Origin: Dictyostelium discoideum
Taxonomy: Eukaryota
Assembly (NCBI GenBank): GCA_000004695.1
Contig: CM000151.3
Location: 2,080,001 to 2,144,000 of the forward strand
DNA length: 64,000 bases
Direction: 5' to 3'
The notes beneath the pieces were generated by a model. It saw only the letters and a list, made by a program, of their open reading frames with translations, was not told the DNA's origin and did no database searches. Shown here piece after piece: positions 31,171 to 38,531 of the stretch (the first letter of the stretch is position 1; each line of letters opens with the position of its first letter). The position numbers were made by a program, and so were the translations under genes.

Positions 31171-33956
31171 TTATTTATCAAATGAATAATTTGGATGTAT
31201 AATTAATATTCTATGATCAGGATATTGATTTGGTACTAATACAACAAGAGAATTGTCTTTGTTTATCATTTTATTGATAACCATTTTAGTGATTTTAGTT
31301 TCTTTTGTAACTTCATCATCAGTGATTATGCCAGACTCCAATTGATCTTTAATGTACCAATCGATAAGATCAATTTGTTTTATACCAGATTTCTCTTTTC
31401 CTGATTGTTTAATTTGTAAAACTAATAATTTTGATAATTGTGAATATTTTGAAAAATTCATAGTTAATTTGCCAATACCATCATCACCATCTTCTTCAGC
31501 ATGGTTATCGTTATCATTTTCAACATTTTTGACTAAATCATCATCATCATCACCTAAAATTACATCATTTGTTTCAACATGAACTATTGATTTCTCTAAT
31601 AATCTTGCAGCTTCATTTACATATTTTGGTAAAACTTTTGTATCTAAATGTAAACGAGCCAATGATTCCGATAAACGAACTAATGATTCCAATTGTCTAA
31701 CTGTGATTCTGTATGCTGGAGTTTTTGAACCACTGGTATCCATTTGACGTAATCTATCGTAATGTCCCACCAATAGTTGTACACTTTCATCTGGAATGGT
31801 TGGACAAATGAATTTTGTATACTTTATATAGTTTTTAATTTCAGTTGCAGAGAATGGTGCGTTGAATGCTTTTTCACGTTTTTGATGAGTCAACACGATA
31901 TGCTCTGCTATTCTATGATCAGATTCTGGATTACATTCATCCAATACCACAAAGAATAAATCGAAACGTGACATTAGTGGACCACCAATATTTAAATTTT
32001 GTTTTAAAGTTTTATTACGATCATAACGACCACCAATTGGATTTGCTGCTGCTAAAATACTAGTACGAGCATTCAATGATGCATGAATACCCGCCTTTGC
32101 AATGGAAATGGTTTGTTGTTCCATTGCTTCATGAATTGCAACTTGGTCACCTGGCTCCATTTTATCAAATTCATCAATACAACAAATACCATTATCTGCC
32201 AACATCAATGCACCTGCTTCAATATTAAAATCACCACTTTCTTGATCCTTTACAACTGTTGCCGTTAAACCTGCTGCACTACTTGCTTTACCAGATGTAT
32301 AAACTGTACGTGGTAAAAATGATACTAAATACTTTAAAAATGTACTCTTTGATGTTGATGGATCACCAACAATACAAACATTAATATCACCTCTTAATCT
32401 AATCTTTTCTGGTGTTTTCTTATGTACACCACCAAATAACATTAATAATACTCCTCTTTTAACTAAAATAAATAAATTAATAAATTAATAATTTTTTAAA
32501 TAAATATCTATATAAATTATTATTATAAATTATTATTATTATACTTTACTTTCTTCATGACCAAAAATTGAAGGACAAATTGAATTTACTAAATTTTGAT
32601 AAATTTTTTTACTTTTAATCATTTTCTTTAAACTATCTTTTTCTTTTTTTGGTAAAGAATCTAAAAAGGATTCTTTTGATTCAGGTTCTAAATCTTCATC
32701 AATGATACCAACTGAATGAGAATGACCACCATGATTATCACCAGATTCTTTACGATTGATTGAGGAAAGTGTTGAAACATTTGAACGAACACTTTGAGAG
32801 AAGAAACAAACTCTATAATTCATTTCTCTAACACCTAAATCTTTTAAACCACCAACACCACCAAAATCATCCTTACCATTTGCATTTGAACCTTCCTTTG
32901 TGCTCGATGCTACACCCTTGATAATTTGAGCATTATTACCAATGGACATTTTAGAAACATCTGGAATTACATTCATCGTACCAACAAATGTACATGTATC
33001 ACCAGCTCTAGCGGTTTCAACCGAATCACCACGTAGAATGATCTCTAATGATCTTGGTACGCTACCACCTGGAATTTCGGAATTGTTTTCTTGAACTCTA
33101 ACTTTTTGCCAATCAGTGAATGTCGACTCCTCTAAATTTATCTTCCAACGACGTTGATTTGAACATAACGGATTCAAACATTTGGTTGGTTCTGTATATT
33201 TAAATTGTTGGGCTATTGGTAACGATGAGGTATTACAATCCTTACAAATGAATGACCCAATAACCAACTCTGGTCTAACCTCTGACGTTCTCGTTACTGT
33301 ACCCGATATAGAACATAATGATCCTATCCTACTTGATCTAAGTTCTCTAATATGTACAAACGTTGAAACATTATAACAACAAATTGATAATACTATCCTT
33401 TCTTTATTAACTCTCTCCATAAATGATGGAAAATATTTTTGTATAAAAATTGATAATCCTTGTCTTATCGCTGGTTCTAATCTAATATTTATATAATTTT
33501 ATAATTAATTTAAATTCAACCAATTTTTTTTTTTTTTTTTTTTTTTCCTTTTTTTTTTTTTTTTTTTAAATCATACCTAAAATATTCCATTAATAATGCT
33601 TTTCCTAAACCTTTATCAAATTTCTCTAAATGTAAGAAATCTATATATAAACTTGATTTATCATTTTTTATCATTCTTTCAACTTGTTGACGATAATAAC
33701 TTTTATCTATTTTCTCTTTTTTAATACCATTTTCGTCATATTCATTTTCATTTTCATTATTATCTTCATTATCTTCATTATTATTATTATTATTATTTTT
33801 ATCAATTTTTTTTTTTAATTTAAAATTATTTAAAAATTCTAAAAATTTATTTTTTGTCCATTCTTTTGCTTCATCTTGTACCTTTTGAAATTGATGTGTT
33901 TGATTTGGTCTTATTGTTGCTTTATCTTCATCAACTCCAGCATCTGTATATATCAT
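31171..33956 (-). CDS. mcm6: DNA replication licensing factor MCM6. Exons 33577..33956, 32550..33481 and 31171..32462; introns 33482..33576 and 32463..32549.
   Basis: The N-terminus is ...FQKVQDEAKEWTKNKFLEFL...LLMEYF. It continues RLEPAIRQGLSIF..., the zinc finger CKDC...CLNPLC, ...IFGHEE | IKRGVLLMLFGGVHKK, Walker A GDPSTSKS, IDEFDKM, and an arginine finger SRFDLFF. The C-terminus VLPKYVNEAARLLEKSIVHVE...HPNYSFDK matches MCM6-specific tails. Donors GTATGA and GTAAAG, phases consistent. Confidence 0.9.
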
Positions 33957-34073
33957 CTTTTAATTTATTTATTATTATTTGTAAACAAAAATCTAATGCT
34001 CAAAAAATGAAAAAAAAAAAAAAGTTTGAAAAAGAAAAAATAAAAAAAAATAAAAAATAAAAAATAAAAAAAA

Positions 34074-34084
34074 AAATTGGCGCA
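34074..34084. promoter_or_regulatory. E2F-like element AATTGGCGCAC, about 120 bp upstream of the MCM6 ATG (minus-strand gene).
   Basis: TTGGCGC core at 34077..34083, followed by a second CG-containing stretch TTTCGACGC. It sits in otherwise A-only sequence. Confidence 0.45.
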
Positions 34085-34191
34085 CTTTTTCGACGCTATT
34101 TTCTTAGAAAAGTGTTAATCTAAATTTTAAACGATAATGATAAACTAATAAACTAATAAATTGGATTTTTTTTTTTTATATACAAGAATAA

Positions 34192-34860
34192 TTAATTAAG
34201 ATTTATTATTTGCTGATTTAATTGTTGAATTTGTAATTTAAGATGTTGAATTTGTAAAAATAATTGTTGATAATAATTTCGTATTGGAATACTATTATTA
34301 CTATCGTTATTATTTTTATTATTATTGTTGTTGTTATCATTATTATTATTCTTGGTAATATCTAATAAATTTATATATTGAGTTGTTTGAATTGTATGCA
34401 TTTCTTTTGAAATGGATTTAATTTGATTTTCTTTTACTAAAATTATATGTTTAGTATTCACTCTTTTTATAAAATTATTATATTGAGATGGTAACTTTAT
34501 GTGATTTGGTAATTGATGAGACTTCATATGATTCAAACATTTTATATATAATGGATCATTAATATCTATTTTATTCTCTTGAAGTTCATTTAATTTCTAT
34601 TTTTTTGGAGAGAAAAAAAAAAAAAAAAAAATAATAAAAGAAATTTTTTTAAATTAATAAAAAAAAAAATATACATACATTATATCCAATACAAAATAAT
34701 TTTATAATTTCTGTATTATTTTTATTATCACTTTGTTTTTCACTATTTATTGAGTATGTTGGAATTTGTATTTTGTGTGTATTAATTTTAAAGAAAAAAA
34801 AAAAAAAAAAAAAAGTATTTTAAGTAGTAGTAAAATCTGAAAGTTTAATATTGATTTCAT
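34192..34860 (-). CDS. Copy A of a tandem three-member gene family (possible roadblock/LC7-like small protein). Exon 2 is 34192..34596; the putative exon 1 is about 34679..34860; the intron is 34597..34678.
   Basis: Exon 2 reads KLNELQENKIDINDPLYIKCLNHMKSHQLPNHIKLPSQYNNFIKRVNTKHIILVKENQIKSISKEMHTIQTTQYINLLDITKNN...QQLFLQIQHLKLQIQQLNQQIINLN*, with acceptor AAAAAATAG. Exon 1 reads ...FKINTHKIQIPTYSINSEKQSDNKNNTEIIKLFCIGYN with donor GTATGT. The only upstream ATG (34860, MKSILNFQILLLLKIL) is separated from this frame by a T21 homopolymer and is +1 out of frame. Confidence 0.5.
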
Positions 34861-35194
34861 ATATAAAAAACTTTATTTTTAATGTTTTTTTTTTTTTTTT
34901 TTTAATATTTACACAATTTTTTTTTTCAATGGAAATTTACAAAAAATAAAAAAATAAAAAAAATCTAAAAAAAAAAAAAATCTGAAAAAAAAAAACATAA
35001 ATGATGCCATTTTTTTTGAATTGTAATAAAAAAATCCAAAATCGAGATCTTTGCAAACTTAATTTTCCATTCAACATTTTTTTTTAAAATCTTTCAATAA
35101 AGACTAGCAACATCAATGACGACCACAAATTTCAATAACAACACCAATGATATTTCTTTCCACTCCCATTCCAAACCATCACAGCCGCAAAATG

Positions 35195-35213
35195 CTACCC
35201 CAACTTTCTCCAC

Positions 35214-35270
<57 letters not shown>

Positions 35271-35799
35271 ATCTTAAAAAAAAACAAATCAAAAAAAATT
35301 TTAATGTATAAGAATAATAAATAAAGATTTATTATTTGCTGATTTAATTGTTGAATTTGTAAAAATAATTGTTGGTAATAATTTCTCATTGAAATACTAC
35401 TATTATTATTATCCTTATTATTATTTGTAATATCTAATAAATCTATATATTGATTAGTTTGAATTGTATGCATTTCTTTTGAAATGGATTTAATTTGATT
35501 TTCTTTTACTAAAAGTATATGTTTAGTATTCACTCTTTTTATAAAATTATTATATTGAGATGGTAACTTTATGTGATTTGGTAATTGATGAGATTTCATA
35601 TGGTTTAAACATTTTAAATATAATGGATCATTATTGTCTATTTTAATCTCTTGAAGTTCATTTAATTTCTAAATTTATTTAAAATAAATAATTAAAAAAA
35701 AAAAAAAAAAAACAAAAAAAAAAAAAGTGTAAGTTTTTTTTGTTTTAAAAATAAAAAAAATAAATGATAGAGATATAAAGATATGGATATACATACAGT
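35195..35799 (-). CDS. Copy B of the same family. It has lost its stop codon, giving a read-through into low-complexity sequence, and carries a 24-nt internal deletion. Exon 2 is 35195..35668; the exon 1 remnant ends at 35799.
   Basis: KLNELQEIKIDNNDPLYLKCLNHMKSHQLPNHIKLPSQYNNFIKRVNTKHILLVKENQIKSISKEMHTIQTNQYIDLLDIT...QQLFLQIQQLNQQIINLY then LLFLYIKIFF... TAATTA in copies A and C is TTATTA here. Exon 1 (HKIQIPTYSIINEKQSDNKNNLEIIKLFCIGYT, donor GTATGT) has no in-frame ATG. Confidence 0.4.
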
Positions 35800-36175
35800 A
35801 TATCCAATACAAAATAATTTTATAATTTCTAAATTATTTTTATTATCGCTTTGTTTTTCATTAATAATTGAGTATGTTGGAATTTGAATTTTGTGTTAAA
35901 GTTATTTCTAAAATTTGAATATTTTAATAATGATTTGATTTTTTAAAATTACATTCTTTTATACAAAGGTTTTTTTTTTTTTTATTAATATTGTTTTTAG
36001 TAAACTAAATGACTGAAACCATAATTTAAAAAAAAAAAAAAAAAAAAAATCCAAAAATGACACCACCCAGAAAATTAAAATCTGAAAAATAATTAAAAAA
36101 AAAAAAAAAAAATCCAAAAATAAAAAAAAAAACATGGGGTTTTAAGTAAAAAAAAAACTAAAAATGTAAAATTAG

Positions 36176-36209
<34 letters not shown>

Positions 36210-36292
36210 CAAAAGGTTTTAAGTTATCGTCTTCTAGAATACAGTTTTTTTATTTTTTTTGTTTTATTATGTTTTAAAATATCTTTTTAATC

Positions 36293-36595
36293 TTAACAAC
36301 ATCTACGATGATGACGACGACCAATATCAATGTCAACATTAATTATATTTATATTTCTACCTCCACTAATACAACAACCACCACCTCCCATACAACCATC
36401 AAAACCACCATCAAAACATGCAACTGAATTATTACCAATGTTTTTACCAAAGCTACTTAAAGTTGAAATTGAACTATTGATTGACTTTGTTGGATTGGAA
36501 ATTGATGAAATTGAATCTATTAAATAAAAAAAAAAAAACTATTAGTTTTGTTTTATTAATTTTTTTTTTTTTTAAAACCAAATTTCAATTACCGA
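36293..36595 (-). CDS. hssA/2C/7E-family small Gly/Ser/Cys-rich protein. Exons 36583..36595 and 36293..36516; intron 36517..36582.
   Basis: MAIF | [74 protein letters not shown]. The MxI-SISSISN N-terminus, a 13-nt first exon with GTAATT donor, and the G/C-rich tail are typical of this Dictyostelium family. Confidence 0.65.
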
Positions 36596-37003
36596 AAATT
36601 GCCATTGTTTGATTTTAAATTATTTGTTCTTTTATTAGTTTATATTTAAAAAATAATTAATAATAAAAATTTTAAAAAAAAAAAAAAAAAACATATTTTT
36701 ATAACTTTAAAACATTTTGAATAAATTGTCTATATAAATATTTTTTAATTGAAATAAAATGAAATGTGTTAATAGAAAAGTTTTTTTTTTTTAAACTATT
36801 GAAAGGAATTTTCTGAGCCATTTAAAGTATTTTAAATATTAATTAATAAATTCAAATATTTTTAAAGCTTTTTTTTTTTTTTTGGTAATAGGAAAAAAAA
36901 AAAAAAAAGAAAAAAAAAAAAAAACAAATGAATAAAATAAATGAGTAATGATAACAATAAAAATAATAAAGAACTAATGAAAATATTTTATATACAAGAA
37001 TAA

Positions 37004-37369
37004 TTAATAAAGATTTATTATTTGATTATTTAATTGTTGAATTTGTTGTTTAAGATGTTGAATTTGTAAAAATAATTGTTGGTAATAATTTCTTATTGAA
37101 ATACCACTATTATTATCATTGTTGTTTGTGATATCTAATAAATCTATATATTGAGTTGTTTGAATTGTATGCATTTCTTTTGAAATGGATTTAATTTGAT
37201 TTTCTTTTACTAAAATTATATGTTTAGTATTCACTCTTTTTATAAAATTATTATATTGAGATGGTAACTTTATGTGATTTGGTAATTGATGAGACTTCAT
37301 ATGATCCAAACATTTTATATATAATGGATCATTAATATCTATTTTATTCTCTTGAAGTTCATTTAATTT
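37004..37369 (-). pseudogene. Copy C of the tandem family. Exon 2 (37004..37369) is intact, but the segment homologous to exon 1 of copies A and B is present in inverted orientation at about 37495..37660.
   Basis: Exon 2 reads KLNELQENKIDINDPLYIKCLDHMKSHQLPNHIKLP...QQLFLQIQHLKQQIQQLNNQIINLY* with acceptor AAAAATAG. The plus strand at 37600..37650 reads cacaaaatgcaaattccaacatacacaattattaataatgaaaaac, which is the minus-strand exon 1 sequence of copies A and B. The nearby tgtataaaagaatgtaatttt is likewise the reverse complement of copy B's attacattcttttatacaaa. Confidence 0.4.
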
Positions 37370-38090
37370 CTATTTTTATTTTAAAAAATAAAAAAATTAA
37401 AAAATAAAAAAAGTGTTAGTATTTTGTTTTTAAAAAAAAAAAAAAAATAAAAAATTAAGATACTCAAACAATTTACTGACACAAAAAAAAAAATAGCATT
37501 GTATAAAAGAATGTAATTTTTTAAAAATGAATTCATTATCAAAACATTCCCAATAGTTATTTCAAGTAATTTTTAAATTAAACTCATCAACACAAAATGC
37601 AAATTCCAACATACACAATTATTAATAATGAAAAACATTTAACTTATATCAAAAAATAAATTAAAAAAATAAAAAAAAAAAAATTTAAGGTTTAACACCA
37701 CCAAAAAAAAAAAAAAAAAAATTGTGAAAAAAAAAAAAAAAAAGATTTTTGTAGTTATCACCTTTGAAATTCTTTTTTTTTTTATTTTTTTTTAAAATAT
37801 CTTGAATCTTAATTTCCTTTTTCACACTTTTTTTTAATAAACAATTTTTTGTTTTTTTATTTTTTAATTAACATATTTGTGTGAATAATTCAATCACGAT
37901 TGCGGTAATTTCTAAAATAAAAAATTTTCACCAAATTTTTTATTTTTTTTTATTTTTTTTTTTTTTTATTTTTTTATTTTTATTTTTTTTTTTTTTTTTT
38001 ATTGTCAATTTTGATCAGTCCCTCACAAGTTCATATTTTATTTTTAAATCAAACCAATAAAATAAGAAATAAAAAAATAAAAAATAAGAA

Positions 38091-38531
38091 ATGAGTATTG
38101 GTATACCAGTTAAAATTTTACATGAAGCAGATGGACATATAGTAACAGTGGAGTTAAAAAATGGTGAACTTTATAGAGGTACATTAATAGAGAGTGAAGA
38201 TAATATGAATTGTAGAATGAAGAATATTACAGTCACAGCAAGAGATGGCAGAAACTCTCAAATGGAATATTGTTATGTTAGAGGTAGTAAAGTTCGTTTC
38301 ATCATTTTACCAGATATCTTGAAAAATGCACCAATGTTCAAGAGAATCGATGGTCGTGTAGTACTTAAAGGTAAAGCATTAGGTATTGGTAAAGGTGCAA
38401 CCTTTGAACGTGGTAATTTCAGAGGTGGCCGTGGTGGTGGTGGTGATCGTGGTGGTTTCAAAGGTGGTCGTGGCGGTGGAGGTCGTGGTGGTTCTATGAA
38501 TACTTTCCAACAAAGAAGAGGTCCACAATAA
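38091..38531 (+). CDS. snrpD3: Small nuclear ribonucleoprotein Sm D3. Single exon.
   Basis: [83 protein letters not shown]... plus a C-terminal RGG/GRG tail. It is near-identical in pattern to human SNRPD3. The symbol follows from orthology. Confidence 0.9.

Follow-up and report, generated by a model that had tools for sequence, protein, structure and literature searches.

A young tandem gene array of Dictyostelium in which all three copies of the AX4 reference have damaged 5' ends

The window analysed here is a stretch of 64,000 nucleotides (nt) from chromosome 2 of Dictyostelium discoideum AX4 (contig CM000151.3, positions 2,080,001 to 2,144,000), a sequence with a G+C content of about 20%. 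Between the genes for SmD3 and MCM6 lies an array of three related sequences, which we name copies A, B and C. They are direct repeats on the minus strand, sharing a 300-nt core that is 91-94% identical at the nucleotide level in a repeat search, and their full units can be aligned from the splice acceptor to past the stop codon. The original prediction for this region, made from the letters of the window, had already located the three tandem copies and placed their exon-2 open reading frames (ORFs) correctly at 34596..34192 (A), 35668..35195 (B) and 37369..37004 (C). Two of its details need correction: exon 2 does not have a uniform 120 codons (it has 134 in A, 116 in B and 121 in C), and the acceptors are near-identical instead of identical, being AAATAG in A and C and ATTTAG in B. 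Copy A is annotated as DDB_G0272853, the exon-2 product of copy C is 100% identical to DDB_G0272762, and copy B has no annotation in AX4. Rfam and tRNA scans of positions 33900-38100 give no matches. The features of the array are collected in Table 1.

A protein search with the exon-2 product finds matches in Dictyostelium only, with E-values from 1e-28 to 7e-69. The relatives come from a divergent D. discoideum isolate, D. cf. discoideum, D. citrinum, D. dimigraforme and D. firmibasis; from these five genomes we fetched the loci and extracted eight copies outside AX4, which serve as the template of the ancestral gene. All eight start at an ATG immediately 5' of the codons for QIP, and all eight have an exon 1 of 93-102 nt, a GTATGT donor, a phase-0 intron of 63-172 nt and an exon 2 ending in TAA. 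The ancestral product of these two exons has about 150-166 amino acids (aa) and begins MQIPTYS...KLFCIGY(T/S/R), after which exon 2 continues with KLNELQ. The family homology extends from there over HQLPNHIKLPSQYNN and HIILVKENQIK to a C-terminal leucine zipper, and all three window copies align throughout. The position between SmD3 and MCM6 is kept in all array genomes examined. As annotated, the copies number one in D. citrinum, D. dimigraforme and D. firmibasis and two in D. cf. discoideum; there are three in the D. discoideum isolate and in AX4. The ratio of non-synonymous to synonymous substitution rates (dN/dS) is 0.26-0.43 in pairwise comparisons between species, and the array therefore belongs to a real protein-coding family under purifying selection. 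A hidden Markov model profile built from seven members and run against 1.84 billion representative sequences retrieves two Dictyostelium sequences alone and no homologue outside Dictyostelium. The genes, of Dictyostelium group 4, form a young family restricted to Dictyostelium.

One relative lies outside the array. The intronless paralogue ACTFIR_009713 (127 aa; L007:7001-7384, on a 57-kb contig of GCA_054859385.1) is at an unrelated locus and is contiguous over the exon 1/2 junction, with GGATATTAT directly followed by AAATTAAAT, which is independent evidence that at least one lineage makes the exon 1/2 splice in vivo. This paralogue, in which MESVKLFCIGYY precedes KLNELQ, resembles a 5'-truncated retrocopy with a new ATG derived from ATA. 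The gene adjacent to it has no relative in AX4 or elsewhere, and its neighbours have no Pfam domains. Were AX4 to have this paralogue as well, it might account for a neutral loss of the array.

The closest comparison for AX4 is the array of the divergent D. discoideum isolate (ACTFIW_011711, ACTFIW_011712 and ACTFIW_011713; GCA_054859355.1, an assembly from Holland et al. 2025, PMC12745789). Both arrays have three copies in the order SmD3 - C - hssA - B - A - MCM6, they share copy-specific indels, and their nucleotide identity is 86-91%. In the isolate, all three copies have ATG starts, a forward exon 1, TAA stops and full heptads; in AX4, by contrast, all three copies are damaged at the 5' end, and B is damaged at both ends. 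The single-copy orthologues ACTFIV_007337, ACTFIU_008743, ACTA71_002679 and RB653_010295 (D. citrinum, D. dimigraforme, D. firmibasis) likewise have two exons, the MQIP start, the KLFCIGY, HQLPNHI and HIILVKENQIK motifs, the C-terminal zipper and the SmD3/MCM6 interval; they differ from AX4 in having one annotated copy per genome. None of the AX4 copies has the complete two-exon structure with its ATG before QIP, GTATGT donor and phase-0 intron: A and B keep the donor and the intron, and C lacks a forward exon 1. Measured against the intact orthologues, A has lost the ancestral start, B the start, the stop and 21 nt, and C has an inverted, truncated exon 1. The AX4 copies are family members by descent that are structurally disabled.

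Copy A is orthologous to the 166-aa gene of the divergent isolate, with which it shares synteny, a long N-rich insert and an NLN C-terminus. At the position where the aligned orthologue has ATG, copy A has ATA, and from the nearest upstream stop down to exon 1 its frame contains no ATG. The original prediction missed the change of ATG to ATA, as it also missed the ATT of copy B, and had the only ATG upstream of exon 1 put out of frame by a run of 21 T. That run has precisely the length reported and is T21 again in the independent assembly described below. It belongs to the non-coding 5' flank, 39-51 nt upstream of the true start, which is the ATG before QIPTY that has become ATA in AX4. The intact orthologue has a T22 tract here.

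Copy B is damaged at both ends. Its start codon reads ATT, an in-frame TAA stands two codons upstream of it, and, as in A, no ATG in frame precedes exon 1 after the nearest upstream stop. The loss of the stop in B, predicted as a change from TAA to TTA, is confirmed by the TAA that A and C carry; it adds 41 low-complexity codons (the TTA counted, where 40 had been given), which run into the 3' flank. A deletion predicted to be of 24 nt is of 21 nt, at about 35365-35340, and removes exactly one heptad, the seven codons of HLKLQIQ. In A, the corresponding segment is flanked by two 12-nt direct repeats, ACAAATTCAACA. Copy B also has three substitutions at residues that are invariant in all eight other copies, whereas the wild copies of the D. 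discoideum clade have none or one. In an AX2-like assembly, a single gene model of 268 aa covers copies B and A (L002:5613-7444), presumably because B has lost its stop codon.

In copy C, a block carrying the start of the gene is reversed, as the original prediction had it. The plus strand of this block matches the minus strand of A and B, and the block is 91% identical, reversed, to the orthologue in the divergent isolate, with which the sequence on both of its sides is colinear. AX4 lacks about 59 nt of ancestral sequence, comprising the 3' part of exon 1 and the GTAT of the donor. In every outgroup the block reads forward, and the inverted state of AX4 is thus derived. Exon 2 of C is an intact ORF in which none of the 62 covered invariant positions is changed. 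As a separate observation, the inverted promoter and its ATG point at SmD3, whose ATG is at 38091, and open a 20-codon ORF on the plus strand (37597-37659; MQIPTYTIINNEKHLTYIKK, then a stop codon). If the inverted promoter still fires, its transcripts would enter the SmD3 upstream region.

Table 1. Features of the array and of the genes next to it. Positions without a prefix are window positions; those with the prefix L are positions within fetched loci.
Feature	Position	Strand	Description
Copy A exon 2 (DDB_G0272853)	34192..34596	-	134 codons + TAA at 34194-34192; ORF intact
Copy A intron	34597..34678	-	82 nt, GTATGT...AAATAG, phase 0
Copy A ancestral exon 1	34679..34771	-	93 nt; start ATG to ATA at 34771-34769
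T21 run (A21 on plus strand)	34794..34814	-	non-coding 5' flank of copy A
Copy B read-through tail	35195..35317	-	LLFLYIKIFF...FFFFLWRKLG, TAG at 35197-35195
Copy B exon 2 up to former stop	35318..35668	-	stop now TTA at 35320-35318
Copy B intron	35669..35796	-	128 nt, GTATGT...ATTTAG
Copy B ancestral exon 1	35797..35889	-	93 nt; start ATG to ATT at 35889-35887
Copy C exon 2 (DDB_G0272762)	37004..37369	-	121 codons + TAA; ORF intact
Copy C remnant of ancestral intron	37370..37461	-	colinear with orthologue, GTATCT... to AAATAG
Copy C inverted block	37462..37637	+	176 bp; 135 nt of 5' flank, ATG at 37597-37599, first 41 nt of exon 1
Filler at distal inversion junction	37638..37650	.	13 nt, TTTAACTTATATC on plus strand
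DDB_G0272762 model, exon 1	37638-37615	-	ATG TTT TTC ATT ATT AAT AAT TGT = MFFIINNC
DDB_G0272762 model, donor	37614-37609	-	GTATGT = reverse complement of old Thr-Tyr codons ACATAC
MCM6 first exon (flanking)	33516-33956	-	MCM_N domain
SmD3 gene (flanking)	38091-38531	+	LSM domain, 146-aa product
hssA/2C/7E-type gene	36293..36605	-	exons 36605-36593 + 36516-36293; 78 aa, ends GRRHHRRCC
hssA-type genes, D. firmibasis	L005:6474-6671; L005:7889-8083		both sides of the family
hssA-type gene, D. citrinum	L003:6340-6555		
hssA-type genes, further loci	L006:8067-8276; L001:9332-9580		

The lesions are not peculiar to the reference assembly. Over 8 kb, the assembly GCA_054883475.1 follows the window colinearly with 99.2% identity. 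Within positions 33900-38100, the differences are six base substitutions, grouped in three clusters that are intergenic or intronic, and a few indels in homopolymer or repeat tracts other than T21. The assembly carries the inversion, the ATA, the ATT, the TTA and the T21 alike, and since all of them recur in an independent assembly, none is an assembly artefact; the original prediction had named such an artefact as the outcome that would overturn the inversion. These assemblies were made de novo from Nanopore and Illumina reads, and the wild isolates were picked as genetically distinct from AX4 (Holland et al. 2025, PMC12745789). The 99.2% assembly is probably that of AX2-214. We infer that the isolate with the intact array, labelled D. 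discoideum, is CR116C or OT3A, the two isolates that form macrocysts with AX2.

The copy numbers of the relatives and the lesions of AX4 back, in broad terms, the picture of birth and decay first proposed for this three-copy family. The array would have expanded from one to three copies within the D. discoideum clade, the hssA-type gene between B and C being part of the ancestral locus, and in the NC4-derived laboratory lineage (AX4 and the AX2-like assembly) each copy has independently lost its ancestral translation start. In copy A, ATG has become ATA. Copy B has the changes of ATG to ATT and of TAA to TTA, a deletion of one heptad that would be due to slippage between the 12-nt direct repeats, and the three substitutions of invariant residues. 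In copy C, 176 bp have been inverted, so that the promoter, the ATG and the first 13 codons now point away from exon 2; about 59 nt are lost there, and a 13-nt filler is present. Judged by its sequence, copy B is clearly a dead pseudogene. For the array as a whole, we think it probable that it is decaying, that A and C are recently disabled relics whose exon-2 ORFs have not decayed, and that their annotated models are patches made by gene predictors.

Several points weigh against this. When substitutions are polarised, the ratio of non-synonymous to synonymous changes is 18:12 on the AX4 branch and 9:14 on the wild branch, and the excess on the AX4 branch is a trend only, without significance (Fisher p = 0.17). 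The dN/dS between AX4 and wild copies is low, 0.12-0.21, A and C retain an uninterrupted exon-2 ORF, and no invariant residue of C is altered; an intact exon 2 and a low dN/dS imply that the lesions are very recent or that the exon-2 products are still under selection. Pure neutrality makes it somewhat improbable that three independent events should disable starts within a short time. As near-cognate initiators, AUA and AUU could allow low-level translation. The comparison at the DNA level covers one lineage with the lesions, the NC4-derived one, and one strain of the discoideum clade without them, and a literature search on DDB_G0272762 and DDB_G0272853 returned no paper naming either identifier. 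The mixed evidence for A and C fits a recent disablement.

The first alternative is that A and C are functional as annotated, through new first exons, with products that comprise nearly all of exon 2 but not the exon-1 helix: in C a first exon born of the inversion, in A one that starts at an ATG created by a change of ACT to AAT. The annotated models merit a closer description. In DDB_G0272762, the model ATG straddles the inversion junction, taking its CA from the inverted block and its T from the filler (as read on the plus strand), and the implied intron of 245 nt holds the inverted ancestral promoter. In DDB_G0272853, the model starts with MY at an ATG that arose by ACT to AAT at the last codon of the old exon 1; this ATG overlaps the original GTATGT donor, the model requires a GTATAT donor 4 nt downstream, and it contains a 33-nt "intron". 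Both AX4 models look like gene-predictor patches that use ATGs created by the lesions. In favour of their being real genes, both ATGs have an A at position -3, the donor of C is the consensus GTATGT, A and C have an undamaged exon 2 in which few or no invariant residues are changed, the dN/dS between AX4 and the wild copies is low, and the identical 129-aa model is called again in the second assembly. But both models are products of gene prediction, and the AX4 proteins may have served as a guide for the second annotation. The ancestral promoter of C faces away from exon 2 and lies inside the proposed intron, the model of A prefers the weaker GTATAT over the overlapping, intact GTATGT and needs a second intron that is implausible at 33 nt, and both models lose the exon-1 sequence EI(I/V)KLFCIGY, which is near-invariant across species. 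We hold this alternative to be unlikely.

A stronger form of it gives the inversion a constructive part. The inversion would have rebuilt copy C, supplying an ATG at its junction and an antisense GTATGT donor to make the 8-codon MFFIINNC exon, spliced to an unaltered exon 2; A would have gained a replacement ATG; and the loss of all three ancestral starts would follow from the N-terminal helix having become dispensable or deleterious in the NC4 lineage. If true, this would be the birth of a first exon from the antisense strand of the exon that it replaced. We put it forward as speculation, and it seems to us slightly more doubtful than the alternative just described.

Another possibility is that translation of all three copies begins within exon 2, at its first AUG in frame (the Met of HMKSHQ), and yields truncated coiled-coil products of about 98-134 aa with only the last two helices of the protein. 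All three copies do have ORFs of 101-134 aa that start at an ATG or a near-ATG, most orthologues have the HMKSHQ Met, and the products would keep the zipper along with helices 3 and 4. However, such products lose 54 conserved residues, that is helix 1 and most of helix 2, and nucleotide conservation reaches the acceptor, upstream of this Met, in all copies. D. citrinum GS8B has Ile at its position, from which we conclude that the HMKSHQ Met is not a conserved alternative start. We judge this reading improbable.

Two further explanations have next to no probability left. That copy A starts at an ATG at 34860 and is put out of frame by a length change of the T21 run, as a sequencing error or a phase-variable tract, draws on an ATG-initiated 37-codon ORF that crosses the run out of frame with exon 1, but the eight orthologous and paralogous copies start downstream of the run at the ATG before QIPTY, the upstream ATG is followed at once by TAA in the intact orthologue and likewise in copy B, and the run has the same length in the independent assembly. 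The view that errors of assembly or sequencing in the AX4 reference produced the inversion, and perhaps other lesions, could appeal to a locus so extremely AT-rich and homopolymer-laden that it is hard to assemble, but the second de novo assembly has the same state at each site, and an error common to both is implausible for a 176-bp inversion of unique sequence.

The array is an ordinary case of pseudogenisation of young tandem duplicates, unusually well resolved. With the generic case it shares independent disabling lesions in recent paralogues and a deletion between short direct repeats that fits slippage. It differs in that all three copies are hit at the start and in that two of the lesions create new ATGs later used by annotators. 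The changes from G to A in copy A and from G to T in copy B fall on the only G of the ATG, and would reflect AT-biased mutation in an AT-rich genome. The array has no bearing on a long-standing open question. Its value is in part one of annotation, since gene predictors appear to have patched damaged genes in the models DDB_G0272762 and DDB_G0272853, and the third copy is an unannotated pseudogene; database models also appear mis-joined in D. firmibasis, D. dimigraforme and the AX2-like assembly. It further offers a compact example of the life cycle of a taxonomically restricted gene, with a putative expansion from one to three copies followed by three start-disabling lesions in one lineage, and the intact state in a related isolate provides a natural loss-of-function contrast for the family.

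For the protein, AlphaFold2 run on the family alignment predicts four helices (residues 6-38, 46-57, 68-113 and 117-151) and no strands, with a mean predicted local distance difference test score (pLDDT) of 79.3 and a predicted template modelling score (pTM) of 0.63; two of the five models are confident. At the C-terminus, LFLQIQHLKQQIQQLNQQIINL has L every 7 residues (position d) and I at the intervening a positions over three to four heptads. This is the heptad pattern of leucine-zipper coiled coils, here within a C-terminus predicted as one long helix. The zipper is preceded by N/S-rich low-complexity sequence (...NNNSISIRNYYQQ), with no basic region and no Pfam match to the basic leucine zipper (bZIP) domain, and in the absence of an adjacent basic DNA-binding region the protein is not a bZIP. 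The predicted helices and the zipper suggest that the product is a small dimerising coiled-coil protein.

A resemblance to roadblock/LC7-type proteins (PF03259), which the original prediction had offered as a weak one, does not survive. The Roadblock/LC7 domain is an alpha/beta fold with a central antiparallel sheet, whereas the fold predicted here is all-alpha; the two are alike only in small size and in a hydrophobic-polar pattern near HIILVKENQIKSIS. Pfam has no significant match for the product, and none to Robl_LC7 even at E<=10; the weak Pfam matches below the cut-offs are to Dcp2 box A (E = 0.009) and DUF3242. Foldseek against the PDB finds generic helical bundles, with a best E-value of 0.36 and no roadblock entry among the best 50 matches listed, and a profile search of PDB sequences finds nothing relevant.

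Between copies B and C lies the hssA-type gene, at the location first reported. It matches Pfam PF05710 with 27.4 bits against a cut-off of 21.4 and has a Gly/Cys-rich C-terminus. The original prediction took it for an insertion into the array, and in this it was mistaken: the divergent isolate and D. cf. discoideum have the gene at this position, in D. citrinum and D. firmibasis it lies next to the single copy, and its presence at the same place in relatives makes it ancestral to the locus. Genes of the hssA type stand beside the family in all genomes examined but D. dimigraforme. The hssA-type family and the array family may have been duplicated together as one unit.

Two gene models of the relatives, RB653_010295 of D. 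firmibasis (L005:7001-8086) and ACTA71_002679 of D. dimigraforme (L004:7001-7971), have foreign C-termini that come from predicted introns; the D. firmibasis model is joined by splicing to the downstream hssA-type gene. Both are probably annotation mis-joins, because the plain exon-2 ORFs of both species end in the conserved zipper. D. citrinum has, downstream of its one annotated copy, a fragment of 23 codons (L003:7870-7938) that matches the C-terminal zipper and may be the remnant of a second copy.

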